From IMG/VR virus record IMGVR_UViG_3300045747_000694, positions 42,165 to 106,164 of that record: 64,000 bases of DNA; one strand, written 5' to 3'. Position numbers and translations under genes: made by a program. This DNA is from a virus. Below are positions 1,625-57,204 of the stretch, piece by piece (position 1 is the stretch's first letter; each line of letters begins with the position of its first letter). Under the pieces are notes generated by a model. That model made no database searches. It was not told the origin of the DNA and saw nothing but the letters and a program-made list of their open reading frames with translations.

Positions 1625-4600
1625 ATGGCCCTCGTATACCCGCTGGTCAACGACACCACTGGGCAGTTCGAAGAGCCCATCAACTACCAGGCCGACAGCC
1701 TGGTGGCTGGTGGTCTCTACGTTCAGAAGACGACGACCAGTCTCACCACCCCCACCTCAACGACGGGCCTCACCTACGACGGCACGAACACCTTCGTGGT
1801 CCTCAAGACCGAGGGCACGAAGATCTCCTTCCAGGTCGCCGGGAGCGAGCTCGCCACAGTCGACGGCGGCGGGATCGACGCTCTGTCCTACGACTCGCTG
1901 ACGAGCGTGCAGCTGAACATCGGCGTCACCAACGCCACCTCGCTCGTACTTGGCAAGACAGCGGTCCCTACAACGGTGATGAGCACGCTGAAGCTCGTTA
2001 CGGGGGACGGCTCTTCCACCTACACCACGCCGCAGGTCAGCCTGGGCTACGCGGGGTCCAACCAGTACCCGCACTTCATCCACACCAGGCACAACACGGT
2101 GGCTGCCAACAGCGCCATCGACTTCTACGTCAACGACGGGACGCTCGCAGGAGTCTTCCCCACCAACGCCACCCTCTCCGGCTTCATGGACTACCAGGGG
2201 TGGAACGGCAACGTGATGGGCCCCGCGGCCGCATCCCTCAAGCTCAAGGGCTTGATGGTGGATGGTGCCTCTGCGGTCAGCATCATCAACGACTCCCCTG
2301 CCTACTCCACGGCCGGGGCGAAGCTCCTCTCGGTTCGCAACAACACCGTGGAGAAGATGTACGTCGACAAGGATGGAGGCGTGTACTCGCAGGCAGGCTT
2401 CTCTGCCCTCGGCGGGTACTTCGTCCTCTCCTCTGGTGGCTCGTTCTTGGGGTACGCAGGACAGGCTGCCCGCATGGAAGGCCGGATGGTCGACGGCTCA
2501 ACCGCCGTCGGCAACGTGCTCGACACCTTCGCCATCACGTACTCGACGGCAGGAGCAAAGCTCGTCTCGTTCCGCAACGCAGGGACGGAGAAGGCCTACG
2601 TCGACAAGGACGGCAAGTTCTGGTCTGCCGGCTCCGGAGTTGCCACGATCCCCTACGTGCAGAGCAAGGGGATGAACCTCATCGCCAACGGCACGGGGCT
2701 CCTTGGCACCAACTACAACTTCTCGAGCTTCACCTTCACCGGGGCGGAAGCCTACGGCGCTCCTGGCAGCTTCTACTCCGACACCCTGAGCGGTGGCTAC
2801 TCCAACGACGAACTGCTCCCAGTCGACCCGGGCAAGTACTACGAGCTTCGGCTGTGGGCGAAGGCAGTGTCGGCCGCGTCGCCAGTGCACGCCTACTTCG
2901 GCGGTTCGTTCTTCGACGCTGACCAGCTCAGCCTCTTGCCCTACTTCCATATGCGGGTGGCTGGGACCGACACCACCCTCGCCGCCCCCTTGAAGGTGGG
3001 TGACACCACCATCACGCTGACGAGCAGCGCGAACTGGTACCTCGGCTCGACGACGTACGTGCGCCAGATCATCATCTGGGGCTACAAGAACTCCTTCGGC
3101 TACCAGTACGCGCCCTACACGTACAGCCGGTACACCACCAACACCCTCGGCGCGCCCTGGAGCTCGGGGGCTTGGGCGCAGACCACAGGCATCTCTGGCA
3201 ACGTCATCACGTTGGCTGCCCCTTGGCCTGCCTCCCACAACAACCCAGACGATCCAACCAACGGCTGGCCTGCCGGGACGCCGGTCTCGAACTCCAGCTC
3301 TGGGGGCACCTTCAAGTACTTCGCCGCGGCCAACGTCACAACGGCTGCGACATGGCTCGAGTACCGAGGACAGATCGGCTCTCTCGACTTGAGCGGTAAC
3401 AACGACACCTACTCGTTCCCGCCAGGTTCGGCGTACATGAAGCTCCTGTTCCTGTTCAACCGGGACACGGGGGCCACCGCGAGCCGCACCTACCTCTCGA
3501 ACATCTGGTTCAGCGAGATGACTTCGCTGACTATGCTCACACCGGCCAACAGCGCCTCGGCGGGCACGACGATCGTGAACTCGCCTGCTCTCACGATGCG
3601 CGGCCAGTACTGGAACGGCTCGGCTTCGGTCAACATCGACGCGAGCCTCGTCCACGTCGTGCAGACCACGGGGCCCACCACCAGGCTGGCCTTCAACGTG
3701 GCCGGTGCAGAGCGCGCCTCGGTGGACTCGGGCGGCACGGTCACTGCTTCCTACTACGCCTCGTCCATCGGCTGGATCTACTCGAGCACTGCTGCCACCC
3801 CGATGAAGGTGCGCGGCAATGCGGACGCCACAGGCTCCATCGCTGTTCAGATCGGCAACCAGACCACCCTCACGGGGGGCAGAATCGTTTCCTTCTGCAT
3901 CGACTCGTCGATGGCGACGGAGAAGGCCTCCATCGACTACACCGGTGCCTTCTTCGGGTACAGCTACGACGCACTGATCGGGCAGGGGCTGACCATCGGA
4001 GGCACCAACGCCACTACGGTCACGTTGGGCAAGAACGGCGTTGGAACGACCGCAGCTGGGGCGCTGACCGTCGTTGGCGGTGGGACGCTCGGTTGGTCGC
4101 CCTTCATGATCACCGGCACGCAGCCGGACGTCCTGTACGGCGGTCAGGTCACCAACATCTACGGCTTCCTCGGTACCGGTGCGTACTACGCCAGCCTCAA
4201 CTGGCGCTCTCCAACGACCTACGCGTCGAACATCCGCTTCGGAGGCTCCGGCGGCACGCTGGGCAACATCGAGTTCACCACCGACACAGGTCTCACGGCG
4301 AACACCAACTACACGCCGACGGTGAGGATGACTGTTGCTGCCAATGGCACGATCGCCATCGTCGGTTCGGTCACTGCTGCCTCGATCTCTCTCGGCGGCA
4401 CCAGCATCCTCGCAGGCTTCAACGATCGCACGACCAGCACGCTCGGCTTCGTCGACGGCACTCGCGTCTTCACTCTCTCGACGGGTAGCTCCTTCGTCTT
4501 CTGGGCAAACAACGTCAAGTACACGAAGAGCACCAGCCAGACCGTCACCATTGCCAACACGGTCGGTCAGCACTTCATCTACGAAGATGCCACTGGCACA

Positions 4601-7600
4601 CTCGTCGAGAGCACATCCCCGTGGAGCATCGACAGCGACCAGATCGCCCCCGTCGCCACCGTCTACTGGGATGGCGCGAAGGGCGTGATCGGCGACGAGC
4701 GCCACAATGCCTTCCGCAATCGCCAGGCGCACGTCTACCTGCACAACACCCGCGGCACTGCTTACGACTCTGGCCTCGCCGGCACCTTCACCAACACCAC
4801 GCTCTCCGTCGCCACGGGCGTCATCTGGGACGAGGACATCAAGTTCTCGCTGACTGGTCCGTTCACCGCCTGCCGCCTCTGGTACACCACGACCGGCGGT
4901 ACGGTGATGACGTCGAACACGGCGAGCACCACGCCGTATGCGGTGAACACTGGCACGCTCCAGTATGACAACGCCGGCACGCTTACCAATGTCGCGGCCA
5001 ACAGCTACGTCGTCAACTGGGTCTACGCGACGAACGACAAGGACTACCCGATTGCAGTGGTGGTCAGTCAGGCCGTCTACACCACACTGATCGGCGGCGC
5101 TCGACAGGCGACGCAGCCCACGTTCCCGAATCTCAACACGAGAGAGTGGAAGCTCCTCTACAGCATCACGTATCGCAACGTCGCCGGGGTCGTCACCTAT
5201 ACGGAGCAGACCGACTACCGCAACGTCTCCTCTCTCCCGAATGCTGGCGTCACCTCACTGCCTGCGAGCTCTGTCACTGTCACGCCCGCTGGCAGCTTCA
5301 CTGGCGCGGCGAACGTGCAGGCCGCCCTCGAGATCCTCGACGCGGTGAAGAGCACGACGGGGCCGACCGGGCCGCAAGGCGCCACCGGACCGGTAGGGCC
5401 GCAGGGTGTGACTGGTGTGACGGGGCCGACGGGGGCACGGGGCGCAACCGGCGTCGACGGAGTCACGGGCGTCACCGGCCCGACAGGCGCGCGAGGAGCC
5501 ACCGGGGTCACGGGGGCTACTGGCCCCATCGGACCTCAGGGCGTGACCGGAGCTACTGGTCCCGTCGGCCCACAGGGCGCCACTGGCCTTCAGGGCATCC
5601 AGGGCTTCACCGGCGTGACTGGTGCTACCGGACCCGTTGGCCCACAAGGAGTGACGGGAGCCACAGGCCCCGTCGGACCGCAGGGGCCGACGGGCGCAGC
5701 CATCACCGGCGCACAGGGGATCCAGGGGCCGACCGGGGCCGCGATCACAGGAGCGGTTGGTCCCCAAGGGCCGACAGGCGTCACCGGCGCTCGCGGTGCA
5801 GATGGTGTGACGGGAGCTACCGGCCCCACCGGGCCCGTTGGCGCGCAGGGAGTGACTGGGTGGACCGGGCCTACCGGGGCACGCGGTGCGACGGGAGTGG
5901 ACGGCGTCACGGGCGTGACCGGGCCCACAGGAGCTCGGGGCGCTACCGGCGTCACTGGAGCTCAAGGCATTCAGGGCATTCAGGGAGTGACGGGCTTCAC
6001 TGGCCCGCAGGGAGCACAGGGGCCAACTGGTGCCGCCATCACTGGGCCGCAAGGAGTGACTGGGGCAACTGGGCCCGTGGGGCCTCAAGGGCCCACTGGT
6101 GCTCTCGGCCCCACCGGCGCCGGCAGCTTCCCCAACGGCGCGAGCGGCTACGTCCAGATCCATGGCGGCGCCATCTTCGACAGCAGCGCGAACTTCTTCT
6201 ACACGAAGCACAACAACACGCTCAACGTCAGCACCATCGACGCCGTCAGCCCGAACCCTCTGACCCTCCTGGGCAGCGCGACGGGTGGCGCGACGGGTGG
6301 CGCGCTCATCTTCGATCAGACTCCGGCGATCACGGTCTCGGGCGGCAAGCTCGTCTCCTTCCGCAACGCTGGAGTGGAGAAGGCGTACCTCGACATGTCG
6401 GGCTACCTCGTCACCTCCGGCGGGGCAACCATCACCGGAACCTTGGACGTTCTCGGTGGGTGGGTTCGCGCCGGCACGCTCATCTCGACGGACATCCAGC
6501 CCTACAACGCTGGTCCGGTCACCATCACCGGAACTGGCACCACTAGCGGCACTGCCGTCTCGGTCATCGTCCACAACCTCACCAACCTCACCACTGCGGG
6601 CGACAAGCTGATGTCGTTCCGTTCGGTGGGCAGCACCGAGGTCGCTTACGTCGACTACGTTGGCACCGTCTACGGCGCCGGGTTCAACACATCAGGTGCC
6701 ACGTACGGTGCGAGCACGGCTTCGATGACGTACTTGTACGCCTCGAACGCCAACATCGACTTGATTCAGTCGAACACCAGCGTCACTCTCCAACTCGTTG
6801 GTCGGGTGGTTACGGGCTCTTCGGCCATTGGCGTCACCATCAACAACGGCAACTCACTCACCACCGCTGGTGCGAAGCTCGTCTCCTTCCAGAACGCGAC
6901 GGTGGAGAAGCTCTACATCGACAAGGATGGCTTCCTTCATGGCGTTGGCACCACAGGCGGAGTGAACGTCGTCATCGACACCAACTCTACCTTCACCGGC
7001 TCCGGCAAGCTCCTGAGCGTCCGCAACACGGGCGGGGATGTCTTCACGGTGGATGCTGGTGGCTTCGTCACAGCCAACGAGTACCGCCCCAACTCTGCGA
7101 CCTCGACGGTGACCTTGGCGGGCACTGTTGCGGCGGGTACCACTACCGGTTCGGTCATCCTCAACACGACCACGGCGCTGACCACGTCAGGTGCCAAGAT
7201 TGTCTCGATTCGCAACGCCGGAACGGAGGTCGCGTCGATCTCGAAGGAAGGCACCATCACCGGCAGCGACATCTACGCCATCCGGTCCGGCGCCACTACC
7301 ACGGGGGTCATCTACCTTGGCAGCGGCGGCGCTCGGTACCTCTACTACGACGGGTCTCAGTACGTCCTGAATGGCGCGGCACTGACGGTCGGAGGCATCG
7401 TCTACGCCACCGACTTCTCGGCATCGTCCGACTACCGGCTGAAGAGCGACATCATCACCATCCCGGATGCGCTGGAGCGGGTGATCTCGCTGCGGGGCGT
7501 CAACTACACACGCAAGGACGACGAGAACAAGCACTTGCACATGGGCGTCATCGCCCAGGAGGTGGAAGCGATTGTTCCAGAGGTGGTCAGCACCGACGAG

Positions 7601-7705
7601 AGTGGTATGAAGTCCGTGAGCTACCAGAGCCTGGTGGGCATCCTCATCGAGGCGATCAAGGGCCTGAAGGCCGAGATCATGGAGCTCAAGGAGGACTTGG
7701 CATGA
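1625..7705 (+). CDS. giant tail fibre/tailspike (2,026 aa) with collagen-like region and C-terminal S74 intramolecular-chaperone auto-processing domain
   Basis: ATG 1625 follows GAGGGAAG. Long beta-rich Gly/Thr/Ser sequence. A ~30-aa motif [22 protein letters not shown] recurs at least 7 times. The Gly-X-Y region lies at ~5350-6125. The C-terminus SDYRLKSDI...[17 protein letters not shown]...[16 protein letters not shown] matches the endosialidase/tailspike S74 chaperone domain. Confidence 0.85.
5350..6125 (+). repeat. collagen-like Gly-X-Y triplet-repeat region (~258 aa) inside the fibre gene, with an internal duplicated block
   Basis: Continuous [19 protein letters not shown]... triplets. 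The block [33 protein letters not shown] occurs twice (~5430 and ~5880). Confidence 0.85.
7337..7705 (+). other. peptidase S74 / intramolecular chaperone domain of the fibre (predicted autocleavage at the Ser of SSDYRLK)
   Basis: Consensus SDxRLKxNI...GxIAQEV...LIEAIKxL recognised by eye in the last ~120 aa. Confidence 0.75.
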
Positions 7706-8826
7706 GCAAGCGCCGTGAGTTCCACATGGACTTGAACCTGACCAACCAGTGCAGCCTGCGCTGCACCTACTGCGTCGAGACGGGCCTCTTCAAGGCCAAG
7801 AACTGCGACGAGATCATCCCCCAGTTCTACGAGTGGATCGACCGCTTCATCGTGTCCGACTTCTTCAAGGCCTCGTTCGACGTCCTCCACATCTCTCTCT
7901 GGGGAGGCGAGCCCACATTGGAGTGGGATACCATCTTCAGGCTGATGGAACGGTACCTCGGGGACAACCGCGTGATGTTCATGCTGTACACGAACGGCTA
8001 CAGCGTTCCTGGGTCTCTTCGGAAGATGATCGTCAACGCGAGCGAGCTCCACAAGAAGGACCCCGACAAGCACTCGGAGTTCCGTCTTCAGGTCTCCTAC
8101 GATGGCCAGCCCATCCACGACCTGTGCAGAAGGACAGTGGACGGCAAGCCCACCGCTGACCAAGTGCTCAAGACGTTGCGGTGGGCACAGGACGCAGGCG
8201 TGGAGCATAGCGTCAAGTCCACCATCACCTTCGACACGCTCAAGCACCTCTACGAGGCATGGGCCGACGTGAACGCCATCAGCAGCGGGAGGTACTCTTA
8301 CTTCCCCACGCTGGACTACGTTCACTTTGCCACCCCGGAGCAGGTCAAGCTGCTGGACGGGTACATCGAGGAGATGAAGACGGGCATGAAGAGGATCGCC
8401 GCGGCGCTGCTGACCGCGAAGCGTGAGGGGAAGGCCGCCTCCGAGTTCAGGTGGTTCCGCCCCTCTCGAGACAAGTGCGCGGCCGGCATTCGCCTGTTCG
8501 GCCTGGATGTGGATGGCAAGATCTACTCTTGCCACTCGGCCATGTACTCGCCGGCCAAGAGCGACCACCTCATCGGCACGCTCGCTGACGACTTCTCCAT
8601 CTTCGAGAAGTCTGTGAGCAAGCACCCCAACACCCGCCCGGCGGAGTGCTCGTCCTGCGACGCGATCTTCTGCGTCAGCTGCAACACCACCAAGTACCCG
8701 CTCTCTTCCAAGGGAACCTACGAGGAGAGGTGGTCGGACTACACGGTCGTCGAGAGCTCGTGCCGCGTCTACCGAGAGATGGGCAAGGTCACCAGAGCCT
8801 ACATCCAGTTGAGGGATGCGACCTGA
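7702..8826 (+). CDS. radical SAM enzyme with C-terminal SPASM domain (anSME-like peptide/protein-modifying maturase)
   Basis: CSLRCTYC (CxxxCxxC) at residues 17-24. GGEPTL SAM-binding motif. C-terminal Cys clusters [19 protein letters not shown] ... [14 protein letters not shown] typical of SPASM. The start ATG overlaps the fibre stop (ATGA). Confidence 0.85.
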
Positions 8827-9518
8827 TGGCCACGATGAGGCACAAGATTCGCGGTGACGCGTTCTTGTTCGACATCATGCAGCCCATCCTCGATCTGAGC
8901 TACTCCGGGGACCTGGCGGGTGCCTTGGCCCAGCTGGAGGCGCTCGAGATGCCAGCGACGCTCGACAGGGGACGGGACCTCCACGTCTGGTTCCAGGTCA
9001 GCGCAGAGAAGCTGCGCCACTACGTCAAGCTGTCGCGCTCGACCGATGCCGCCCGCACCGCCTCGCAGATGATCCGGGTCGACGTCGTCAAGCTCGAGGC
9101 GATGGTTGATGAGTTCTGGGCCTGGGGCTTCACCATCGGACTCCTCCAGTACATGAGGTCGATCGACGCGACCAACTTCATGACCAATGCGGAGCTGAAG
9201 CCCTACCGGGACTTCATCGAGAGCACCAAGCACCTCGATGACAACCCCAAGGGGCCGTTCATCTACGACATCTACCTCCTGAGCATGCGGTGTGCGCTGG
9301 ACATGAGGAGCAGTGCCCCGACGGACGAGGTCTTCAACGAGCTCCTCTCCAAGATGACCGTGCCGAACATCGACCTCCTGAAGTTCGGCCACATCCTGTT
9401 GTTGGACTACGTCGCGAGAGCGCTTACTATCCTTTGCAAGCTCTTGGGCAAAGATGCCGCGGTGGCTGAGCAGGTGGCGACTCTTTCGGCCCTCATCAGC
9501 AACTTGCCGCACGACTAG
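8826..9518 (+). CDS. hypothetical helical protein, coupled by overlapping stop/start codons between the rSAM gene and the Cys-repeat/Hint gene
   Basis: ATG overlaps the rSAM stop (TGATG). 230 aa with no recognisable motif. Candidate partner or recognition protein. Confidence 0.5.
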   Translation: MATMRHKIRGDAFLFDIMQPILDLSYSGDLAGALAQLEALEMPATLDRGRDLHVWFQVSAEKLRHYVKLSRSTDAARTASQMIRVDVVKLEAMVDEFWAWGFTIGLLQYMRSIDATNFMTNAELKPYRDFIESTKHLDDNPKGPFIYDIYLLSMRCALDMRSSAPTDEVFNELLSKMTVPNIDLLKFGHILLLDYVARALTILCKLLGKDAAVAEQVATLSALISNLPHD

Positions 9519-9526
9519 GACCGACC

Positions 9527-10189
9527 ATGCTACCGACAACTGGGACCATCAGGCTGAGGGGGGCTACGAGTACCGATACGAATGCGGTCAGTGTCGAGAT
9601 CTTTGGCACGCCCACCAACCTCAACCTCACGGCAACCATCGTCCGAACGCTGTTCGCTCTGGCGAGTGGCACGATCAAGCTGACGGATGGGTACGGCCAC
9701 TGCTACTCGAACTGCGGCTGCGATGCGAACTGCGGGTGTGATGTGAACTGCACCTGCGACGCCAATGGCGGCTGTATCTGCGACCTCTGCCCGTCCCCCG
9801 ACGTGCCCCTCGAGATGGCGGATGGCTCGGAGAAGCCAGCTGGCGAGATCGTGGTCGGGGACCTGGTCACCGCGTGGGACGAGGAGAAGCGTATCCTCAG
9901 CCCTCGCCGCATCACGTACGTCAAGCGGGGCGAGAACGTCAGGATGAGTCTCCTCCTGAGCAACGGCAAGTCTGGTGAGTTCGCCGTGAACCATCGCTTC
10001 CTCACGATCAGCAACACGTGGGCGGAGCTTCGGGACCTGAAGGTGGGCGACATCCTCTCGACTGGCGTCTCAGTGCTGGGGACGATGCTGACTGGCCCAG
10101 GCCCTGTGATCTCCATGCTCGTGGATGAGCTGCACACCTACGTCACGCTCGGCGTGGTGTCCCACAACGCCAAGTGCGGTAACCTCTGA
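9527..10189 (+). CDS. Cys-repeat peptide fused to a Hint (Hedgehog/intein-like, BIL-type) autoprocessing domain
   Basis: Residues 59-88 are CYSNCGCDANCGCDVNCTCDANGGCICDLC (10 Cys; CDANCG-type repeats). A Hint domain follows from Cys88: C-PSPDVPLEMADGSEKPAGEIVVGDLV...NHRFLT...ELHTYVTLGVVSHN. Blocks A, B and F/G are recognisable and it ends in HN. Confidence 0.75.
   Translation: MLPTTGTIRLRGATSTDTNAVSVEIFGTPTNLNLTATIVRTLFALASGTIKLTDGYGHCYSNCGCDANCGCDVNCTCDANGGCICDLCPSPDVPLEMADGSEKPAGEIVVGDLVTAWDEEKRILSPRRITYVKRGENVRMSLLLSNGKSGEFAVNHRFLTISNTWAELRDLKVGDILSTGVSVLGTMLTGPGPVISMLVDELHTYVTLGVVSHNAKCGNL
9788..10168 (+). other. Hint domain portion of the 9527..10189 protein
   Basis: N-terminal Cys, a TxxH-like block (NHRFLT) and a C-terminal VSHN. 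Confidence 0.65.
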
Positions 10190-11683: not shown

Positions 11684-11775
11684 TCGATCCTCCTTTCAGA
11701 GGTGAGCTTCTACACTACGAGGCATGGGTGTGGGTGCACAGAAGCGTATTGCGTACCATGTGCGCGGTACTTGAA

Positions 11776-12142
<367 letters not shown>

Positions 12143-13596: not shown

Positions 13597-14080
13597 ACCA
13601 ACGCCATCCCCAACAGCACGTACCCCGTCATCCGTACCTCCTGGCTAAGGTTGTCTCTGCTCTCTCCTTATGCCTCCACGCACCCACCTTTGGAAGCCAC
13701 TCGCACAGTTGGTACGATGAAAGATGACTCCCAAACGTGCACGGTGCACGGTGTTTGCGCGACCCCATGGGTACCCCGTCAAGCAACGAATGTACAGGGC
13801 TGTCCTGCAAGTCCGGGCAATCAGGAAGAGTATGGAGATGAGCCGCCTCCCGGCGGCTACTCGAAGAGTCCGTTCGCGTTCTCATCCAGGAAGCGAGGTG
13901 TGACTTACACCTCTCCCAGATGGGAACTGAGCGGACTCTAGAGCTTGTCACCGTCAGTGCTACGAGCAGCGAAACTTCACTGCCATACTCTTATGCCCAA
14001 AGTGCGGCCGTACTTGCACCCACACCGACGCCACGATTCATGCTCCCCACTGAAGCTGCGGTGGAGTAGCGTCGAGGTAC

Positions 14081-14926
14081 GTGAGCACTTACTACGCCCT
14101 CCCAGGAACGACCAAGCGCGTTTCGAACTACGCTCTGCTCTTCCTGTGCTTGTTGATGACTGCGCTCTTCGGGGCCGTTGACCGAATGCTTGATGTCGCC
14201 TTCCACTACAACTTCACACCCACGCCGCTCTACCTGATCCCCATCTCGATTGCGGCGTGGTTCGGTGGTCTTCCTCTCGGCCTACTCGTTTCGGTGCCAG
14301 CTCTGTTGCTCGAGTCTTGGCTCAGTCTCAAGTCGATCAAGATCCACCATCCCAACTCAGCCATCATCACCGAGGCTCTCTCGCTTCTCATCGCTGCGGA
14401 GATGCTTGGAGCGGTGTTGATCGTTTCGAGGCTGCGGAGCTACGTTCGCAAGTACCATCACTTCGCTTCGGTGGACGAGCTCACCGAATGCCTCAATGCC
14501 AGGGCCTTCAGGCACGAGTGCGAGATCGCCATCGAGCGCCTGAAGCGCTCGAAGGACGCCCACCTCTCGGTCATGTACATCGACGTGGACGACTTCAAGA
14601 TCGTGAACGACGAGAAGGGCCACAAGCATGGGGATGCGGCACTCAAGACGCTTGGGGAAGCGCTGCGTACCTCGGTGCGCTTGGTGGATGTGGTTGGTAG
14701 AGTGGGAGGAGATGAGTTCGCCGTTCTCCTCCCTGATGCCGAAGAGGCCGACCTCCCACTCATCATCGGTCGCATCAAGGCTGCACTCGTGCAGCTGGAG
14801 TTCCCCACCACCATCAGCATCGGCTACGTGACCTACCCGCCCGGTGTTCCGAAAGACCTCGACGCAGTCTTCCACTTGGCCGACCAGCGCATGTACGCGG
14901 CCAAGAAGGCACGCAAGCAGAGGTAA
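14081..14926 (+). CDS. membrane-anchored GGDEF-domain diguanylate cyclase
   Basis: N-terminal hydrophobic helices. C-terminal GGDEF domain with an intact RVGGDEFAVLL motif. Hairpin terminator just downstream. Confidence 0.8.
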   Translation: MSTYYALPGTTKRVSNYALLFLCLLMTALFGAVDRMLDVAFHYNFTPTPLYLIPISIAAWFGGLPLGLLVSVPALLLESWLSLKSIKIHHPNSAIITEALSLLIAAEMLGAVLIVSRLRSYVRKYHHFASVDELTECLNARAFRHECEIAIERLKRSKDAHLSVMYIDVDDFKIVNDEKGHKHGDAALKTLGEALRTSVRLVDVVGRVGGDEFAVLLPDAEEADLPLIIGRIKAALVQLEFPTTISIGYVTYPPGVPKDLDAVFHLADQRMYAAKKARKQR

Positions 14927-14932
14927 GAAGAA

Positions 14933-14951
14933 GGGCCCAGACTTCGGGCCC
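14933..14951. terminator. hairpin gggcccagacttcgggccc between convergent genes (preceded by GAGGTAAGAAG)
   Basis: 7-bp GC stem. Minus-sense reading gives a UUCUUCUUACCUC tail after the stem. Confidence 0.5.
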
Positions 14952-14974
14952 TCCTCCAGCTGCTGTGCATGCTG

Positions 14975-40644: not shown

Positions 40645-41070
40645 ATGACGGCGAAGATCGCCAGCGAGACGAAGCTCCTCCCGCGCCGCGGCTGGGTCCT
40701 CGTGCTCTCCGACGCCAGGAAGACCAAGCTCGAGTCGGGCATCTTCCTGCCGGGCTCGGAGACCAAGGCCGAGAAGGTGACGGAGCAGGCAGGTCTCGTC
40801 ATCCGCCTCGGTCCGCACGACCACCTCGACAAGATCGGGGTCGTCGAGGGCGACCGCATCGTCTACCGCGGATTCATGAAGCACCACGTGCCCATCGAGA
40901 CCGGTGAGTGCTGGCCCGACGGCTCGACGAAGGAGTTCTTCCTGATGGACGTGAAGGACATCCTCGCGGTGGTGCCCGAGGGCATCGAGGTGGGCATCTA
41001 CACCAGCCGTCCTTCGCAGCACGCGGTCGAGTCGGTGGACGCCGAGGGCAACGTGAAGATGAGGTCATGA
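40645..41070 (+). CDS. GroES/Cpn10-like co-chaperonin with C-terminal extension
   Basis: LLPRRGWVLVL...GIFLPGSETKAEKVTEQAGLVIRLGP...VVEGDRIVYRGF...ILAVV parallels the GroES LKPLGDRVLV...GGIVLP...ILAVV. Confidence 0.6.
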   Translation: MTAKIASETKLLPRRGWVLVLSDARKTKLESGIFLPGSETKAEKVTEQAGLVIRLGPHDHLDKIGVVEGDRIVYRGFMKHHVPIETGECWPDGSTKEFFLMDVKDILAVVPEGIEVGIYTSRPSQHAVESVDAEGNVKMRS

Positions 41071-42029: not shown

Positions 42030-42358
42030 CGGACACCTTCTTCGGCTCGGTCAAGAAGGTCTTCAAGGCGTTCAGCAGCACGGACGGCGAGGACCAGCTC
42101 CTGATCCCAGGGCAGGACTTCCCCTACGTCATCACGGAGATCATCCTCCGCACCGACGGTCTGCCCGCCGACGGGGTCATCTCGCTGTTCAAGGACAGCG
42201 GCAAGCTGCTCGACATCAACATCCCTGCCTCTCTGGAGCCCATCTACGTCGACGGGGACAGGTGGATGGTGGGACACCAAGAGAGCGTCTCGCTCCAGCT
42301 AGCGGTCGGTTATGTCATCTCCGGTCGGCTCATGATCGAGATCGTCACCGACAGGTAG
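42026..42358 (+). CDS. hypothetical protein (GTG start)
   Basis: Complete ORF. Confidence 0.35.
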   Translation: MTDTFFGSVKKVFKAFSSTDGEDQLLIPGQDFPYVITEIILRTDGLPADGVISLFKDSGKLLDINIPASLEPIYVDGDRWMVGHQESVSLQLAVGYVISGRLMIEIVTDR

Positions 42359-42391: not shown

Positions 42392-42595
42392 ATGCTGTCC
42401 CTTCTCGTCAACCTGCTCATCCTCTGCCTCATCATCGGCGTCCTCTACTGGATCGCCACGAAGGTGGCTCCCATGCTGCCGCCGCCGCTTCAGCCCGTCC
42501 CCCCCATCATCGTCGCCATCGTCGGCCTCATCCTGCTGCTCAACATGCTCGGTGTCGTCGGGCAGCCTGTCTTCCACAACCGCTGGGGAAACTGA
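42392..42595 (+). CDS. small two-helix membrane protein
   Basis: MLSLLVNLLILCLIIGVLYWIA...IIVAIVGLILLLNMLGVV. Confidence 0.5.
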   Translation: MLSLLVNLLILCLIIGVLYWIATKVAPMLPPPLQPVPPIIVAIVGLILLLNMLGVVGQPVFHNRWGN

Positions 42596-42596
42596 C

Positions 42597-42818
42597 ATGC
42601 CCAACATCGGCCCCGAAGAGATCGAGAACTGGTTCACCTACCACACGCCCGACAACGTCGACGCCTCGGCCTACACGGCGCTGCGCGCCCACGCCAAGGA
42701 TCTGGCGCTGGCCATCGTGAACCTCACGCCGCCCAGCGCCGACCAGTCGGCGGCCATCCGCAAGCTGCGTGAGTGCATCATGACGGCCAACGCCTCCATC
42801 GCCTGCAAGGGGAAGTAG
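42597..42818 (+). CDS. hypothetical protein
   Basis: Complete ORF. Confidence 0.4.
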   Translation: MPNIGPEEIENWFTYHTPDNVDASAYTALRAHAKDLALAIVNLTPPSADQSAAIRKLRECIMTANASIACKGK

Positions 42819-47073: not shown

Positions 47074-47210
47074 GGGCTAAGGAAACAATCACGGCCACCG
47101 CCTTCTGGCGCAAGGTGCCCCGTCACCGCGGTGGTCCGGCCGACTCGCCGCCTCTCGCGCGACTGCACGAGTCCTGCCCTACCTTCTGCCACTGAACTGA
47201 GGATCTTTGC

Positions 47211-47534
47211 ATGGCGACATTCACCGAGCTGCACGCAAGACTGGTCGACGCGAGGAACCGCAAGGCGGTTCTCCAGATGCTCGTCGAGCACATCGACAAC
47301 AACTTCCTCCCCACCGGGCCGGCGAAGGCCGAGCGGATGCTCCTCAACGACGAGAGGATCCCCGTCCCGCAGGCAATGTTCGAGGCGGTCATCGCCGACA
47401 CTCTCGACGCGGAGATCAAGCAGCTCGATCAGGAGATCGCCCGAGTCACCAACACCGAGCTCGCGCAGAAGGGCGCCGCCCCGAAGGCCGAGCCGGAGAA
47501 GAAGACCAAGAAGTCCCACAAGGAGGCAACGTGA
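47211..47534 (+). CDS. hypothetical protein
   Basis: Complete ORF. Confidence 0.45.
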   Translation: MATFTELHARLVDARNRKAVLQMLVEHIDNNFLPTGPAKAERMLLNDERIPVPQAMFEAVIADTLDAEIKQLDQEIARVTNTELAQKGAAPKAEPEKKTKKSHKEAT

Positions 47535-48088
47535 GCGAAGAGACGGCAGCAGTGGTGGAGGTTGGCAGCCCCGGGACCATCGAGGTCCCTCCGGACGCCG
47601 CCGAGAGGAAGCCCACCAAGCTCGAGGAGAAGCGCCGGAAGATCTACATCGACCGGATGCAGCGCCACATGGCCAAGGGGATGACGGCCGAGGCGGCGCA
47701 CATGAAGATCCAGGAGGAGGACTACGATCGCCTCCCCATCGAGGCCAAGCTGAAGCGCCTCGAGGTGGCCTGCATGCAGGCCATCCAGCGTCTCGCCCAG
47801 GAACTGGGCAGCCTCCAGAACAACGACCAGGTCATCGCCGACGCGATGGACTCCAACTTCCGCGCCATCACCAAGGCGCTCGTGAAGCTCGGCGTCTCCG
47901 GCGAGGAGCAGGTTGCCTTCCTCAAGGAGGCCGAGGTCGAGATCAAGGCCGACCGCGAGAACCGCCAGAAGGTGATGGAGCAGCACGCGGCGGCCATCAA
48001 GGAGGAGGCGGAGAAGGCTCTCGTCGAGAAGACCATCGACCAGCCCGGCGAGGCCACCGTGCCCGACGGCGCCACGGAGTTCGCATGA
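47531..48088 (+). CDS. hypothetical protein (GTG start)
   Basis: Complete ORF. Confidence 0.4.
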   Translation: MSEETAAVVEVGSPGTIEVPPDAAERKPTKLEEKRRKIYIDRMQRHMAKGMTAEAAHMKIQEEDYDRLPIEAKLKRLEVACMQAIQRLAQELGSLQNNDQVIADAMDSNFRAITKALVKLGVSGEEQVAFLKEAEVEIKADRENRQKVMEQHAAAIKEEAEKALVEKTIDQPGEATVPDGATEFA

Positions 48089-48624
48089 GCAGCTTCGACA
48101 ACGCCCTGACCGTCATCCTGAAGCACGAGGTGGACCCCGTCGCCGGGCCGTACTGCAACGTGCCGGAGGACAAGGGTGGCCCCACCTGCTACGGCGTCAC
48201 CATCGCCGAGTACCGCCGCTTCAAGCCCGGCGCGACGGTGGAGGACCTGAAGAACATCCCGATGGCGGACGTCTACACCATCTTCAAGGCCAACTACTGG
48301 CAGCCGCTCGGTCTCGACGGCGTGATCGACCAGACGGTGGCGACGAAGCTCGCCGACATCGCCATCAACGGTGGTCCCGGTGCTGCCTCCGCCCTCGCCC
48401 AGCGCGCCTGCATCGCCTGCGGACAGCCGCTGAACGTGGACGGCTGGATCGGGCCCAAGACGCGGGACGCCATCAACAGCATCCCGCCGAAGGACTTCAT
48501 GGTGGCCCTGAAGGAGCAGCAGCGGGACTTCTACCTGGACATCGTCCAGCACGACAAGACCCAGCTGACCTTCCTCTACAACTGGATGCGCCGGGCCGAG
48601 TGGCCGCTGGCGGGCCAGGCCTGA
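48085..48624 (+). CDS. endolysin: GH108 lysozyme-like domain plus PG_binding_3 domain
   Basis: ILKHEVDPVAG...DKGGPTCYGVT (GH108 N-terminal signature) and a C-terminal peptidoglycan-binding-like half. Confidence 0.7.
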   Translation: MSSFDNALTVILKHEVDPVAGPYCNVPEDKGGPTCYGVTIAEYRRFKPGATVEDLKNIPMADVYTIFKANYWQPLGLDGVIDQTVATKLADIAINGGPGAASALAQRACIACGQPLNVDGWIGPKTRDAINSIPPKDFMVALKEQQRDFYLDIVQHDKTQLTFLYNWMRRAEWPLAGQA

Positions 48625-48666: not shown

Positions 48667-49734
48667 CTACTCGATGTCGATGACGCGGCCGAACTGGCCC
48701 GCACGCACCGACCGAATGCCAGCCTGCTTCGCAGTCTCATCCACCGCCAGCTCGGACATCGCGGCGAGAAGGCTACGAACTTCATCCGTGGAGTGATTCA
48801 CCTGCTCCGCGGTGAGCTGCCAGTCGGTCTCTCCATTCCCGCCCTGCTTCAGGAACCGAGCGCGGATGGACTTGATGGTGTCCTCGAAGGTCGAGGTCCC
48901 CGAGAAGTTGACCGCCGAGAAGGTCTCGAAGGCCTCGAAGAGAGGCCGGAGGTTCTTGGGGTTCAGCTTGCCGTTGGTCTCGAGCAACCTCTTGGCCTGC
49001 GAGGCTGCCTCTCCGAGCTGCTGATGCATCATGACGGAGACCTCACTCACCCAGTGGTTGAGGTCCCGCCGCACCCTGTTCTGCTCCTGGAGCAGTGTCT
49101 CGGCATCCAGGGTGGTCATCGACTCCACGCCCTCGAGCGGCGTCATCTTGAACATGCGCCACTCGAAGTTGTACCGGCTACGCAGGTGCGAGACGTCCGG
49201 GTACAGGGTGCGGTTGATGGCCTCCTGCTGCTTCACCCACCCGTCGAGCTCCTTCACCTTCGCGGCGTATGCGTACGGGGCGACCTTGTTGGCCTCCTTG
49301 TCCGCGATGTTGCGCGCCTGCTGGGTGAGCTTCTCGAGCTGCTCCTCCTTGAAGCGAGGGTAGCCCGCGATGAGGTCGTCGACTGCGACGTCCCACTGCG
49401 CCTTGAACTCCTGGAGTCTCCTCAGCACCCCGCGCAGCGCGTGGTAGGAGACGTACTTCGCATTCCCGATGGGGAAGGGAACGGAGCGGTTGTCGAGGAA
49501 CCTCCTCGCATGCCCCTCGATGAACTGGAGACGCTCCTGGGCCTGACGTGGCAGGAGCTTCTTGTGCCCGATGTAGAAGGCACTCTTGTCGACCTCGTCG
49601 ATGAGGAGGTCGCTCTCGTTCATCTTCTTGTTCGCGGTCCAGCGACCGATGTAGAGGTGAAACAGCGTACCGGTGTCAAAGAGAACGCGAGTGATGCCGC
49701 TCTCCTGCCGGACGGACACAGGAGGGTTAGGCAC
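48667..49734 (-). CDS. hypothetical protein (355 aa)
   Basis: Complete ORF. Confidence 0.45.
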   Translation of the reverse strand: MPNPPVSVRQESGITRVLFDTGTLFHLYIGRWTANKKMNESDLLIDEVDKSAFYIGHKKLLPRQAQERLQFIEGHARRFLDNRSVPFPIGNAKYVSYHALRGVLRRLQEFKAQWDVAVDDLIAGYPRFKEEQLEKLTQQARNIADKEANKVAPYAYAAKVKELDGWVKQQEAINRTLYPDVSHLRSRYNFEWRMFKMTPLEGVESMTTLDAETLLQEQNRVRRDLNHWVSEVSVMMHQQLGEAASQAKRLLETNGKLNPKNLRPLFEAFETFSAVNFSGTSTFEDTIKSIRARFLKQGGNGETDWQLTAEQVNHSTDEVRSLLAAMSELAVDETAKQAGIRSVRAGQFGRVIDIE

Positions 49735-49736
49735 CC

Positions 49737-49940
49737 CTACCCCCCGGTGTGCGAGTGATCGTGCGACTCGATCTTCTGGCTGCCCTCGGGCTTCATGTCG
49801 CGCTTCTCCACCTTGCCGAGAGCGTCCTCGAGGGACTTGGTCTCCGCGAGGCAGGCGTTGCCCACGAAGCCACGGGTCGGCTCGGCCTTGACCGTGCCGT
49901 CCTTGGCGATGGTGACCTTGATCTCCTTCAGCGTTGCCAT
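49737..49940 (-). CDS. DUF2997-like small protein
   Basis: MATLKEIKVTIAKDGTVKAE...GNACLAETKSLEDALGKV. Confidence 0.5.
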   Translation of the reverse strand: MATLKEIKVTIAKDGTVKAEPTRGFVGNACLAETKSLEDALGKVEKRDMKPEGSQKIESHDHSHTGG

Positions 49941-49949
49941 GTTTCCTCC

Positions 49950-50504
49950 TTACAGCGTGATGACCCGGCCGTGCCGGATGCGGGTGTCGTTGCGCTGCGC
50001 TGCCTGAACATCTTCGTCGGAAGCCAGGCGCCGGCGCGGGCCGGTCTGCGCGGGGACTCCGGCGTCCATCTTCTCGAGCTCCTCACCGGCGCGGAAGCGC
50101 CTCATGATCCCGGCCACCTCGCTCTGGATGAGGTCGAGGTGCTTGCAGTGCCGGGGCTTGGGCAGCCCGGTCTCCTTGTCCTTGCGCTGGAAGACCCAAC
50201 CCATGCAGTTGCAGCGCAGGGTCCCGTCTTCCTCGAGGCGCGTCTCGTAGTTCACGATGAAGCCGCCCCTGGGCTGGCTCGAAGCGAACGCCCAGGTGTA
50301 GACCGGCTCCCCGTACTCTCTCTTGGCAGGATCGGTGTTGCTGGTGTCCCTGCCGGTCCTGACACCACGGCGTGGCATGATGATCTTCCTCCTCTGGCGT
50401 GAGGGGAGAGAGGCCGGCACCTCCTCTTCGAAGGGCCGGACCCTCTCCTCGTAGAGCCTGTGCGAGAGGTCGGCGATCTGGTCGATCACTCGCCTTCTCG
50501 GCAT
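49950..50504 (-). CDS. SWIM zinc-finger protein
   Basis: CNCMGWVFQRKDKETGLPKPRHCKH. Confidence 0.5.
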   Translation of the reverse strand: MPRRRVIDQIADLSHRLYEERVRPFEEEVPASLPSRQRRKIIMPRRGVRTGRDTSNTDPAKREYGEPVYTWAFASSQPRGGFIVNYETRLEEDGTLRCNCMGWVFQRKDKETGLPKPRHCKHLDLIQSEVAGIMRRFRAGEELEKMDAGVPAQTGPRRRLASDEDVQAAQRNDTRIRHGRVITL

Positions 50505-50510
50505 GGCTCC

Positions 50511-50939
50511 CTACCCGTAGCGCTGGAAGGTGAGCTCGACCTCGCCGGTCTTGAGCGCCACGCGGTTGGCCACCTGGTACCCCTTCTCGACGCAGTTCTT
50601 CACGGTGACCTTCTCCGCGTAGTACTGCGCGACGAGGTTCTGGTGCTCCATGGGGAAGCCGTCCATGTCGACGTGGACGTCGTACGTCCCCTCCTTGTTG
50701 CGCTCGTAGCCGAGGTCGTTGGACGCCACGTAGCGGCCGAGCTTCTCGCCCTGCGCCGCCTTGCGGACCACGATGTTGGCCTTGAGGTTCGACTTCTGCC
50801 CAGCGTAGTTGAGGAGGTCCACCTTCTTGTCCCCATGGGACTCGACCTTGCCCTCACCGAAGTGCTGGACCAGCGCTGCCACCAGCTCAGCCTCGAACTT
50901 CTGCTGAGCCTGGATGTTCAACTTCACGTAGTGGGACAC
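50511..50939 (-). CDS. DUF1257 (Ycf35-like) protein
   Basis: MSHYVKLNIQAQQ..., overall Ycf35 pattern. Confidence 0.55.
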   Translation of the reverse strand: MSHYVKLNIQAQQKFEAELVAALVQHFGEGKVESHGDKKVDLLNYAGQKSNLKANIVVRKAAQGEKLGRYVASNDLGYERNKEGTYDVHVDMDGFPMEHQNLVAQYYAEKVTVKNCVEKGYQVANRVALKTGEVELTFQRYG

Positions 50940-50985
50940 TGCGTTCTCCTTTCGTGAGACAGGATGCTACTGCGGGGGTACGACA

Positions 50986-52581
50986 TCAGGCGTCGATGCG
51001 GCGACCAGCGGTGCCGACCTGCGTCTGGGCGACGACCTCCTTGCGATTGGCCGGGCGGGTGCGAGCAGCGCACCAGTTGCGGAGGAGCTGGAGCCTCTCC
51101 AGCATCGTCTTGGCGATGGGCTGCGTGGAGTCGAAGGCGTCCTGGAGGTCCACGGCGTTGAGGTCCCTGCCGTGGTGGTAGGCGACCCGCATGGCCTGCT
51201 CGATGGCTCCGTCGATCTCGGCGCCAGTGAAGTCCTGGCTGGTCTCGCCGGCGAAGTGGTCGAGGTCGATCTTGGGCTTCGCGGTACCGTTGACCTGGTA
51301 GAGCGCCTCCCGGTTGCGCCGCTTGATGTGGATGGCGAGGATCTCCTTCCGCTCCTTCTTGGTCGGGAGGTCGATGGAGAACATCTCGTCGAAGCGGCCC
51401 TTGCGGAGGAGCTCCGGGGGCAGCATCGTCACGTCGTTGGCGGTGGCCACCACGAAGACCGGGCTGGTCTTCTCCTGCATCCAGGTGAGCAGCGTGCCGA
51501 GCACGCGCGCCGAGACGCCGGAGTCACCGGAGCCGCCTGAGGCACCCGCGGCCCCCTTCTCGATCTCGTCGAGCCAGAGGACGCAGGGGGACATCGCTTC
51601 CGCGAGGCGGATGGCCATGCGGATGTTGGCCTCGGAGGAGCCGACGAGGGACTGGTAGAGCTTGCCCATGTCGAGCTTCAGCAGCGGCTTGCCCAGCGCG
51701 GCCGCGGCCACCTTCGAGAAGAGCGACTTGCCGGTGCCGGGAGGGCCGACCAGCAGGACGCCCTTGGGGTACGCCAGGCCGAAGTCGAGCGCCTCCTTCG
51801 TGAAGGCGCGCTGGAGTGGCCGCACCCAGTCCTTCAGCTCCTCCATGCCGCCGATGACCTCGAGGCCGGCGGGCACGTCGCGGATGTACTCGAGCAGCTG
51901 GCTCTTGCGCAGCGCGAAGCACTTCTCCCGGATGACGATGGCCGGGTCCCACAGGTCCTCGAGCTTCCGCTTCCCCTGCTTCCGGGGCTCGATGATGGAC
52001 AGCGTGAAGGCGTTCTCAGCCTCCTGCGTGGTGAGCCCCTTGGCGGCGTCGATGAGGAGCTTCTTGCGGTCCGCATCGGGACGCTTGTCGGCGGTGATGC
52101 CGGAGGCCTCGAAGATGCCGTCCAGCACCGCGGTGAGGCTCTCCTCGTCCGGGAGCGGAGCCTCGAGCAGCGTGATCTCCTTCTCGACCTCCGGCGGCAG
52201 GACGATGACGGGGGAGAGGATGATGATCATCTTCCTCGTCAGCTTCATCTCGGGGATGACGTCCAGGAGCAGCGCCTGCACGTTGAGATCCGGGAGGAAG
52301 TGGTGGAACTGACGGAGGACCAGGATGGAGTCCTGCGGGAGGTCCTTGATCTTCTCCAGGGCGGTGGTCGGCATCCCGGTTCCCGTGAGGGGAGCCGTGG
52401 TGCGCCTGGAGTCCTCGATGATGCCCTTGTTGATGGTCCAGAAGTACATCTTGCGCTTCAGGACGTCCGCCGCCTGGCGGATCTCCCGCAGCGTCCTCTG
52501 GTCCTCGAGGCTCTGGAGGTAGATGGCGGCGTAGCCCGCCTTCCCTCTCACCTCGAGGAGGTCGATCAGCTTCTCGGTCAC
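50986..52581 (-). CDS. AAA+ ATPase (Ycf46-like)
   Basis: Walker A GPPGTGKS, Walker [10 protein letters not shown], a second region with arginine finger. ~530 aa. Confidence 0.8.
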
Positions 52582-55971: not shown

Positions 55972-57204
55972 CTAGTCCTCGATGTCGATGATGCGGCCAG
56001 GAAGGAACCGCTTCTCGGGTGTGATGATCTCCTTCTGTGTGGGCTCTTGTGGGACAGCCGCCATTCCCGTATCGGCGCTGAGGACCTCCCCGTACAGGTT
56101 GCGAAGGTCCTCATCCGAGATGCCGTTGCGGTCGACGTACTGGCGAGAGGTCTCGTCCGCTCCGACGGCGAAGTCGATGCCGATGTAGTCGGCGGCCCGA
56201 GGCAGCCGGATGGTGGCCTCGACGTTCATGACCCCATGCCGCCGGAGCCGCTCCATCGTTGCTTGTGCTTCTGCTTCGATGCGCGCTCGCGCCTGCGGGG
56301 TGTCCCGCTCTCCGACGAACCCCTGCAAACGCTCAGCGAGAGCACGCTGAGCGAAGGCGATGGAGCCGGCGGCATCTCCTACGGAAGGAAGGGTTGGAGG
56401 CTCCTCCGGTGCCGCGGTGTACTGCTCGTAGAAGATGTCGTTGTTGACGTTCATCGCTGCACGGAGGTTCTGCTGGCGAGCAGCCTCGGCTTCGCGGCCC
56501 CCGGCGAGCAGTCGTGTCTGCTGAGCTTCTTGCAAGAACTCTCTCGGTACCTGCATCGCGCCCAGCATGGTCCTCCGGGCAGCATCCTGCTGCTCTCTCA
56601 TCCGGGCTTCGTCTGCGGGCGAGGCCGTCATGGGTCGGAAGATCTCCATCAGGAGCTGAGACCCTCCCCGCTGCGGAGTGGGGCGCTCGAGGGCGCGAGC
56701 CTGGTCCCAGATCTCGAGAGGCACGGGGAGGATCTCGGTACGCACTCTCTTGCGGCGAGCGTACTCGATGCAGTTGGCAGTCCCTCCTACCGACCCGTTC
56801 CAGACGGCAAGGAGGAGGGAGGCATTGTCCACCATCCAGGCGTTGCGACGGTAGAGGAGGTTGGCGCGGTACTCGTGGGTGTCGGTAACGACGTGAACGC
56901 TGTCGGCCTCGTTGAGGAGGCGCTGGTAGTGACGCCTCGAGGCGTCAGGCCACCGGCTGTCCCACCCGTGGAAGGGCACGACAGCAGTCCACTTGATCCT
57001 CTCCTCGATGCAGATCTCCGCCGCCCACTGGTCCACTCCGAGCGCCATGCCGGAGAGGATCATCAGCTCATCCCCCGTGCTGACCCTGTCGGCCTGCTCA
57101 CGGAAGGCAGTACGAAGCACCGCCTTCACGTTCAGGTAGATGGGATTCGGAAGGTAGTAGCCGCCAAGCTTCGGCGGCCGGTGACCTGTGATGGCGACGA
57201 TCAT
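55972..57204 (-). CDS. YpsA/DUF1273-type SLOG-domain protein with Gln/Ala/Arg-rich C-terminal extension
   Basis: MIVAITGHRPPKLGG matches the YpsA MKVLAITGYKPFELG. Confidence 0.5.
   Translation of the reverse strand: MIVAITGHRPPKLGGYYLPNPIYLNVKAVLRTAFREQADRVSTGDELMILSGMALGVDQWAAEICIEERIKWTAVVPFHGWDSRWPDASRRHYQRLLNEADSVHVVTDTHEYRANLLYRRNAWMVDNASLLLAVWNGSVGGTANCIEYARRKRVRTEILPVPLEIWDQARALERPTPQRGGSQLLMEIFRPMTASPADEARMREQQDAARRTMLGAMQVPREFLQEAQQTRLLAGGREAEAARQQNLRAAMNVNNDIFYEQYTAAPEEPPTLPSVGDAAGSIAFAQRALAERLQGFVGERDTPQARARIEAEAQATMERLRRHGVMNVEATIRLPRAADYIGIDFAVGADETSRQYVDRNGISDEDLRNLYGEVLSADTGMAAVPQEPTQKEIITPEKRFLPGRIIDIED

Follow-up and report, generated by a model that had tools for sequence, protein, structure and literature searches.

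A predicted membrane-anchored diguanylate cyclase in a lineage of large phages with a probable myxobacterial host

A 64,000-nucleotide stretch of viral DNA (IMG/VR record IMGVR_UViG_3300045747_000694, positions 42,165 to 106,164; hereafter the window) carries at positions 14081 to 14926 of the plus strand a complete gene for a membrane-anchored diguanylate cyclase (DGC), identified from its open reading frame (ORF), Pfam matches and orthologues. The protein is predicted to be a GTP-specific, catalytically competent enzyme, anchored in the inner membrane through a small DUF4118-like helical bundle, and it appears to belong to a lineage of large (150 to 200 kb) phages that probably infect a member of the Myxococcota. 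Cyclic di-GMP (c-di-GMP) is the main switch with which bacteria pass from a motile to a sessile life or back, and in myxobacteria it governs type IV pili (T4P), exopolysaccharide and fruiting-body development. The best overall explanation of our data, which we consider likely, is that the phage DGC raises the c-di-GMP level of the host and pushes the infected cell toward a state of low T4P-dependent motility and altered surface.

The GGDEF catalytic domain occupies residues 129 to 280 (14465 to 14920, plus strand) and was recognized by Pfam, NCBIfam, phmmer and Foldseek. The match to the Pfam GGDEF family (PF00990) has an E value of 1.8e-35 and a score of 122.5 bits against a cutoff of 23.8, and it runs from position 1 to 160 of the 161-position profile; the NCBIfam model TIGR00254 gave an E value of 3.5e-34 and 117.9 bits (cutoff, 37.4). 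With phmmer, the domain matched 40 solved DGC chains (best E value, 3.4e-22), and Foldseek searches of the PDB returned DGCs only, with isolated GGDEF domains at a root mean square deviation (rmsd) of approximately 2 to 3 Å. An earlier reading of the sequence (the original prediction) had proposed an intact GGDEF motif, with a Pfam search as the way to check it, and the full-length match together with the presence of G209 to F213 bears this out. The peptide RVGGDEFAVLL on which that reading was based corresponds to residues 207 to 217.

We assessed residue conservation in alignments with 11 and with 67 homologues and by comparison with the solved structures of RbdA (5xgb), ImcA (8wcn, bound to GMPCPP) and DgcR (6zxm). 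The substrate-binding segment DVDDFKIVNDEKGHKHGD (residues 168 to 185; 14582 to 14635, plus strand) contains the metal-binding Asp D168, K173, the guanine-reading N176, H181 and D185. Its key columns are invariant or nearly so across 68 homologues, and the same columns are found in RbdA, ImcA and DgcR. N139 and R141 of the wide turn (N-x-R), R207 and K275 are also present. Altogether, the residues required for catalysis, namely D168, K173, N176, D185, R141, the five residues of the signature at 209 to 213 and K275, are invariant or nearly so in the 68 homologues. We take the active-site and I-site residues of the phage DGC to correspond to D327, K332, N335, D344, R359/D362, R390 and K442 in PleD numbering.

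The GGDEF signature itself lies at 14705 to 14719 (plus strand), and G209, G210, D211, E212 and F213 show the same near-invariance. The I-site motif RxxD reads RLVD (residues 200 to 203; 14678 to 14689, plus strand), five residues before GGDEF; R200 and D203 are invariant in 68 of 68 sequences, and the five phage orthologues have RLVD or RVVD at this site. The product-inhibition site, which had been regarded as plausible, is thus a canonical RxxD at the canonical spacing upstream of GGDEF. In canonical c-di-GMP synthases the residue that reads the Watson-Crick edge is an Asp, whereas it is a Ser in the Hypr enzymes that make cGAMP; the third residue of the signature binds Mg2+ and the fourth is the general base (PMC6456294). 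As D185, D211 and E212 occupy these positions, with D211 as the predicted Mg2+ ligand and E212 as the predicted general base, the protein is predicted to be a GTP-specific diguanylate cyclase. To judge from its residues, it is very probably an active c-di-GMP synthase.

The N-terminal membrane region (residues ~17 to 118; 14129 to 14434, plus strand) was delineated from hydropathy, an AlphaFold2 (AF2) model and homologues, and it comprises three or four hydrophobic helices. Kyte-Doolittle windows exceed 1.4 at residues ~13 to 41, 50 to 86 and 93 to 120. The AF2 monomer model, built with 68 homologues (pLDDT, 91.9; pTM, 0.81), has helices at residues 16 to 41, 49 to 89 and 94 to 130, the last of which continues unbroken into a standard GGDEF fold. 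The expectation of three to four transmembrane (TM) helices is borne out, with AF2 giving three, the middle stretch being merged into one, and DUF4118 homology implying four. DUF4118 (PF13493, a KdpD-type four-helix bundle) aligns with residues 21 to 122 over profile positions 6 to 97 of 107, at an E value of 0.015 and a score of 15.5 bits that is below the cutoff of 28.4; in 25 of 68 homologues aligning end to end, the family was matched at an E value of 0.01 or less (best, 1.1e-8). We describe the region as DUF4118-like and do not claim membership. A membrane motif, YLIPIS-AAW or YLIPI-AAW, is conserved among these homologues.

The membrane region is followed by a basic juxtamembrane stalk (residues ~119 to 130, RSYVRKYHHFAS; 14435 to 14470, plus strand), through which the last membrane helix runs on into the GGDEF domain. 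Foldseek aligned this stalk with those of coiled-coil or stalk-linked DGCs, i.e., ImcA (8wcn), DgcB (6ttr) and a WspR-GCN4 fusion (3i5c). No recognizable ligand-binding sensor domain, whether periplasmic or cytoplasmic, was found in the 281 residues of the protein. Because there is no sensor domain, the stalk helix is continuous into GGDEF and the I-site is intact, we infer that the DGC would form a constitutive dimer, producing c-di-GMP once it is expressed, and that its output would be capped by the product at the RxxD site.

The ORF has 281 codons, for a protein of 281 amino acids (aa), and ends with a TAA codon at 14924 to 14926. A Shine-Dalgarno-like GAGG and the GTG start codon are found at 14074 to 14083 (plus strand) in the context GTAGCGT-GAGGTACGTG, which is kept in four of the five lineages described below, L007 deviating from it with an ATG start. 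The assignment of the GTG at 14081 as the start is supported by the five orthologues, all of which have a reading frame open from the GGTACGTG context and code for proteins of 281 to 282 aa. Shorter calls of the protein in databases (256, 243 and 255 aa) would lose the first helix. Downstream of the gene, a G+C-rich hairpin was identified from sequence and folding between the convergent stop codons (14932 to 14952; stem AGGGCCC and GGGCCCT, loop agacttc). It resembles a terminator without a U tract, but its folding energy does not differ significantly from that of shuffled sequences (z = -1.0), and we regard it as terminator-like only tentatively. The gene lies inside phage DNA on the strand opposite to that of its neighbors, and it would be transcribed as its own unit within this oppositely oriented block. 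No sigma-70-type promoter was found upstream of it, and searches around the gene for a c-di-GMP riboswitch or any other Rfam family yielded only noise at E values up to 10. A conserved upstream block, TTCATGCTCC, is not a repeated motif.

The genes that surround the DGC gene are those of a phage, with a virion protein, a tail fiber, an endolysin, a ribonucleotide reductase (RNR), GroES, a methyltransferase, small orphan genes and a transfer-messenger RNA (tmRNA). That the carrier is a virus, as the original prediction had assumed, is evident from the tail fiber, virion protein, endolysin and RNR genes and from the presence of a sister contig in IMG/VR. A virion-structural-like protein is encoded at 10 to 1602 and a 2026-aa collagen-like tail fiber at 1625 to 7705, and the window also codes for a lytic transglycosylase and a ligase-like protein, the orphan genes being counted in dozens. 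A megablast search with the locus gave no match among GenBank phages. Tblastn with the AAA ATPase and the RNR matched cultured phages at 45% identity or less, and no close cultured relative was found by this search.

A search among 5.8 billion proteins identified an identical DGC on a 153-kb JGI contig and four diverged orthologues with 82, 80, 63 and 58% identity. Beyond these, nothing exceeded 40% identity, and full-length matches reached at most 36 to 37%. Look-ups of stored annotation by exact protein gave short Logan contigs only. The five lineages, with protein identities of 57 to 82%, share one gene order; their contigs reach 198 kb and derive from JGI, ENA and Logan samples that are independent of each other, and one of these relatives is an IMG/VR viral genome. 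The tail fiber gene is followed by a radical SAM gene, small genes, the lytic transglycosylase (SLT) gene, the tmRNA and two minus-strand genes; after a long intergenic region comes the DGC gene on the plus strand, and small minus-strand genes lie in a row 3' of it. Pairwise dN/dS values for the DGC range from 0.17 to 0.31 and are alike in the membrane and catalytic halves. Between the window and its 198-kb relative, the sister phage L003, the DGC is 76% identical and its neighbors 39 to 94% (median, ~60%); several genes adjoining the DGC gene have no counterpart in L003. Its constant position in diverged relatives, constant length and low dN/dS make it highly probable that the phages maintain this gene.

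To what host these phages belong was approached through the tmRNA, which lies at 11774 to 12142 (minus strand; Rfam score, 105 bits). L003 has a tmRNA at the same internal position (7465 to 7862 of its contig, minus strand; 100 bits), and the RNA is therefore phage encoded. Its first 22 bases are found exactly in 56 species genomes, mostly of Myxococcota or unnamed 'delta proteobacteria'; the Myxococcota among them are Anaeromyxobacter, Anaeromyxobacteraceae and Myxococcales, and Gemmatimonadota come second. The best matches to the full-length tmRNA are Anaeromyxobacteraceae, Myxococcales and 'deltaproteobacterial' metagenome-assembled genomes only, with ~75% identity in the 5' 110 nucleotides (nt) and 100% in the 3' 34 nt. 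The encoded tag is ANEPMFAQQLAAA in this phage and, read by eye, ANEPMINMAAAAA in L003. The corresponding tags are ANEPMALAA in Myxococcota genomes, ANDNLALAA in Gemmatimonadota, AETDFALAA in Thermodesulfobacteriota and ADDHVEYALAA in Planctomycetota, and the phage tags share the ANEPM prefix with those of the Myxococcota. These data provide moderate evidence for a myxococcotal host or donor. They agree with a remark on myxobacteria in the original prediction, as the phage tmRNA is closest to myxococcotal tmRNAs and the prefix is common to both. Both phage tags, ANEPMFAQQLAAA and ANEPMINMAAAAA, end in runs of Ala and not in ALAA, which might alter the recognition of tagged proteins for degradation.

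In Myxococcus xanthus, an active heterologous DGC raises c-di-GMP and lowers pilA transcription, T4P assembly and T4P-dependent motility (PMC4686200). If the phage DGC is made during infection, host c-di-GMP would increase, and in a Myxococcus-type host a high level of this messenger would be expected to decrease pilA transcription, giving fewer T4P and less pilus-dependent motility. The phage would probably benefit because the infected cell would be immobilized, or because its surface receptors would be altered, thus limiting superinfection. There is a parallel in a lytic Pseudomonas phage that raises host c-di-GMP by means of a peptide activating YfiN, for which the authors discuss immobilization and superinfection exclusion as possible benefits (PMC8085984). 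A phage equipped with its own product-limited synthase could set the c-di-GMP switch directly, without the host enzymes. On balance we lean toward a reprogramming of the lifestyle or the receptors of the host as the purpose of the DGC; type IV pili as its main target is a tentative suggestion, and something else may well come first.

Several observations weigh against this proposal. Pfam scans of the concatenated ORFs of the window, in which the GS linkers gave a spurious Serglycin match, found no PilZ, EAL or HD-GYP domain, and the c-di-GMP signal must therefore act through receptors of the host. If the lytic cycle is fast, transcriptional responses to c-di-GMP may have little time to develop, as was argued for the YfiN-activating peptide, YIP (PMC8085984). 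The host assignment is based on one RNA gene, and the genomes used for the tmRNA comparison had been preselected by their exact 22-mer match. Finally, the C-terminal motif A-K-x-x-G-K/R-N is altered to AKKARKQR in most of the phage clade, with a Gly-to-Arg replacement; K275 and the invariant K279 are retained in it.

Among the alternatives, the one that survives best accepts an active enzyme and gives it a function in phage conflict, such as superinfection exclusion or interference with the cyclic-nucleotide immunity of the host, beside an Acb2/Tad1-like sponge, in place of a broad change of host lifestyle. The window encodes an 88-aa Acb2/Tad1 hairpin-domain protein (42552 to 42818, plus strand; PF24729, 41.5 bits with a cutoff of 27; phrog_1454), which is a probable cyclic-nucleotide sponge directed against CBASS or Thoeris-type immunity. 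A CheY-like receiver that stands alone (59300 to 59704, minus strand; PF00072, E value of 5.7e-23) adjoins the RNR gene and is a second gene of host-signaling type in this phage. Together they suggest an investment of the phage in nucleotide and signaling warfare. The characterized Acb2 does not bind 3',3'-c-di-GMP (PMC10312549), so that immune signals could be sequestered while c-di-GMP is made, and sponge and synthase would therefore not interfere with each other. However, the DGC gene is 28 kb away from the sponge gene with no evidence of genetic linkage, and neither the DGC nor its three nearest neighbors matched a PADLOC family at an E value of 0.001 or less. Moreover, we know of no immune pathway that uses c-di-GMP as a decoy or an inhibitor. 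A role in conflict is speculation from co-occurrence in a single genome window, and we consider it unlikely.

It is more improbable still that the protein is a catalytically inactive GGDEF protein whose I-site makes it a receptor for c-di-GMP or a scaffold. Degenerate receptors are common among GGDEF proteins, and the intact I-site and the altered C-terminal motif of the phage clade would be compatible with such a role. Nevertheless, every active-site residue that we checked is present in the alignment, including those beyond the signature whose absence would have indicated a degenerate sensor; the motif is GGDEF and not a degenerate variant, the whole domain is under purifying selection, and the Pfam match is full length. 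Marginally less probable again is the synthesis of a different nucleotide, such as 3',3'-cGAMP made in the manner of the Hypr enzymes, or another product. Hypr GGDEF enzymes with the same fold exist in Myxococcota and their relatives (PMC6456294; PMC8844925). The phage protein, however, has Asp185 and not Ser at the specificity position, an S-to-D mutation turns GacA into a pure diguanylate cyclase (PMC6456294), and the cross-dimer position is occupied by Arg141, as in canonical DGCs, and not by Tyr. Last and least probable, the DGC gene could come from the host, through mis-binning, a chimeric contig or the flank of a prophage, or it could be a recent capture that the phage carries without a role for it. 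Its GC3 of 0.78, lower than that of many window genes, and the many GGDEF matches of viral collections at the very ends of predicted prophage contigs, which are probably host flanks, might suggest this. However, the gene lies deep in phage DNA and is flanked by phage genes on either side, its synteny holds in five lineages from independent samples, no bacterial homologue above 40% identity was found among 5.8 billion proteins, and dN/dS is ~0.2 to 0.3.

The DGC gene is preceded by a long intergenic region of 449 nt (13632 to 14080), conserved in an alignment of the five lineages. An 8-mer promoter-like motif, GGCATAAG, occurs 10 times in the window compared with 0.47 expected, in the minus orientation at 13667, 13990, 15780, 17076, 18203, 19779, 36668, 58651 and 62816 and in the plus orientation at 16836. 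Most copies are located 20 to 140 nt upstream of the starts of minus-strand genes, and a GCAA-like box lies ~17 nt upstream of the motif. It probably represents a promoter class of the phage; the DGC gene is without it. The two intergenic copies (13667 to 13674 and 13990 to 13997) are 70 and ~390 nt from the nearest minus-strand gene start, and both face away from the DGC gene.

Between these two copies we identified a structured element of ~146 nt (13838 to 13983), which may be read on either strand. Its folding is far superior to that of shuffled sequences, with z values of -5.6 (minus strand) and -6.7 (plus strand), and a similar fold was obtained in three of the four other lineages. Covariation analysis of the five lineages revealed 15 compensatory base pairs, against 6.3 ± 1.8 after column shuffling and 2 to 7 in slid controls, and the element contains an invariant hairpin with GCCGCC and GGCGGC paired around TCCC. 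Pairing amounts to 86% on the plus strand and 81% on the minus strand, the strand preference varying from helix to helix. The element has no match in Rfam. A scan of viral sequences for further copies gave one chance match in an unrelated contig of 70% GC (L091). In metagenomes there was one real extra locus, a duplicate of L005, and four more contigs without similarity in the upstream region, among them L092 with a distant GGDEF homologue (37% identity). The element may represent a small RNA whose transcription diverges from that of the DGC gene, or it may belong to a structured leader of the DGC mRNA.

The strong conservation of the DGC, its probable host among the myxobacteria, whose c-di-GMP biology is well developed, and the conserved RNA-like element beside it add to the interest of this locus. 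It may even be that the gene and the ~146-nt element constitute a regulatory module with which a jumbo phage of Myxococcota switches the infected cell to high c-di-GMP on cue, a bolder idea that we regard as doubtful. If it were true, type IV pili, which often serve phages as receptors and which power social motility, would be shut down and rival phages excluded or development halted, and this would be the first defined virus to synthesize c-di-GMP directly to control the behavior of its host.

Other genes of the window are as follows. A radical SAM gene lies directly 3' of the tail fiber gene and is followed by an ORF at 9527 to 10189 (the region spanning 7702 to 10189, plus strand), whose product has a Cys-rich repeat, CGCDANCGCDVNCTCDANGGCICDLC; the sister-phage counterparts of the two products are 56 and 63% identical, respectively. 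An 881-aa protein (30687 to 33332, minus strand) matches the shoulder domain of the major vault protein (PF11978, E value of 2.5e-27) and the vault repeat (PF17795, E value of 2e-9) and has no match among PHROG families; one would not expect a vault-protein-like gene in a phage. A cluster at 48667 to 52581 (minus strand) codes for DUF3150, DUF2997 and DUF1257 proteins and for a 531-aa AAA ATPase that belongs to phrog_8638 and is similar to PADLOC IetA (2.8e-23). Relatives, with ~32 to 38% identity, are found in Rhizobium, Agrobacterium, Rhodobacter and mycobacterial phages. The window further encodes a GroES-like co-chaperonin (Cpn10; 40645 to 41070, plus strand), an endolysin with GH108 and PG_binding_3 domains in the C-terminal part of an ORF at 47131 to 48624 (plus strand), and a YpsA/DprA-like SLOG-domain protein (55972 to 57204, minus strand).

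The original prediction had implied that a viral DGC would be unusual, and in this it went too far, as GenBank phages and IMG/VR already include annotated DGC genes and publications mention them. GGDEF genes are rare in phages but have precedents there, and the present one is a well-supported, unsurprising auxiliary gene. With tblastn, GGDEF genes were detected in 52 of 50,697 GenBank phage records, all at 40% identity or less and over the catalytic domain only. Viruses with such genes include Bacillus phage G (gp350), Bacillus phage SP-15, Escherichia coli phage vB_EcoS-683R6, Acetobacter phage phiAX1, a Mu-like virus of the Cariaco Basin and Methylobacterium phages from glacier ice; these genes differ from the phage DGC in their N-terminal regions and belong to unrelated phages and hosts. 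Viral DGCs have been mentioned in a marine Mu-like virus, phage G and Methylobacterium phages, where the virus-carried GGDEF domain is interpreted as a signaling auxiliary gene (PMC12484599, PMC7785012, PMC8290583). At least 380 stretches in IMG/VR encode relatives of the DGC, many of them at the ends of prophage predictions and possibly host flanks. The literature that we found reports no experimental test of a viral DGC. The DGC described here would be well suited to become the first viral DGC examined for its biochemistry and phenotype, because it has the same position in five diverged genomes, a dN/dS of ~0.2 to 0.3, and has been retained amid the turnover of its neighbors. It also offers a concrete case for the emerging picture of phages that manipulate the second-messenger signaling of their hosts.

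The same small design, with a DUF4118-like TM region and a GGDEF domain, was observed at 31 to 34% identity in unrelated IMG/VR viral contigs of 97 to 209 kb, three of which are 196 to 209 kb long (L009, 5007 to 5885; L010, 4941 to 5801; L012, 4821 to 5705; L013, 4884 to 5738). L009 and L012 have neighbors of PHROG families, and the motif of L013 is a degenerate GGDAF. No gene was common to the window and the flanks of the gene in these four contigs, which suggests repeated acquisition; they are independent cases and not relatives. The recurrence of this design in unrelated viral contigs of ~190 to 210 kb hints at a general strategy of jumbo phages.

Among bacterial proteins, the closest in design are small, uncharacterized DUF4118-type TM-GGDEF proteins of ~270 to 300 aa from Gemmatimonadota, Malonomonas and metagenomes (P0006 to P0120), which align with the phage DGC from end to end. 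They share its architecture, length, YLIPI-AAW motif, stalk helix, GGDEF signature and RxxD site. However, they are at most ~40% identical to it and are chromosomal, whereas the members of the phage clade are phage borne and have substitutions of their own, for example AKKARKQR, in most of them, in place of A-K-x-x-G-K-N. A cluster look-up of the nearest bacterial homologues yielded hardly any organism names. PleD and WspR (1w25, 2v0n, 3bre) have the same GGDEF fold (Foldseek probability, 1.0), active-site residues and RxxD spacing; these are soluble enzymes activated by phosphorylation of a receiver domain, whereas the phage DGC is membrane anchored and has no receiver. The best full-length structural match is ImcA of Pseudomonas aeruginosa, involved in iron signaling (8wcn; PMC10904736), with an E value of 2e-13 over 289 aligned columns. 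Both proteins combine a helical membrane region with a stalk and a GGDEF domain. Nevertheless, their identity is only 27% and the overall rmsd ~10 Å, and the likeness of their membrane domains may be one of layout and not of homology; in addition, the function of ImcA involves a periplasmic partner, of which there is no sign for the phage DGC.

In terms of effect on the host, close systems are the YIP peptides of PB1-like Pseudomonas phages, which increase c-di-GMP, decrease motility and promote biofilm formation (PMC8085984). YIP, a small peptide, works by activating the YfiN enzyme of the host, whereas the phage DGC is a synthase brought in by the phage itself. Integrating conjugative elements of the SXT/R391 family carry active DGCs, DgcK and DgcL, that alter the motility and biofilm formation of their hosts. 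In that case the carrier is a conjugative element and not a virus, and the domain architectures of DgcK and DgcL differ from that of the phage DGC.

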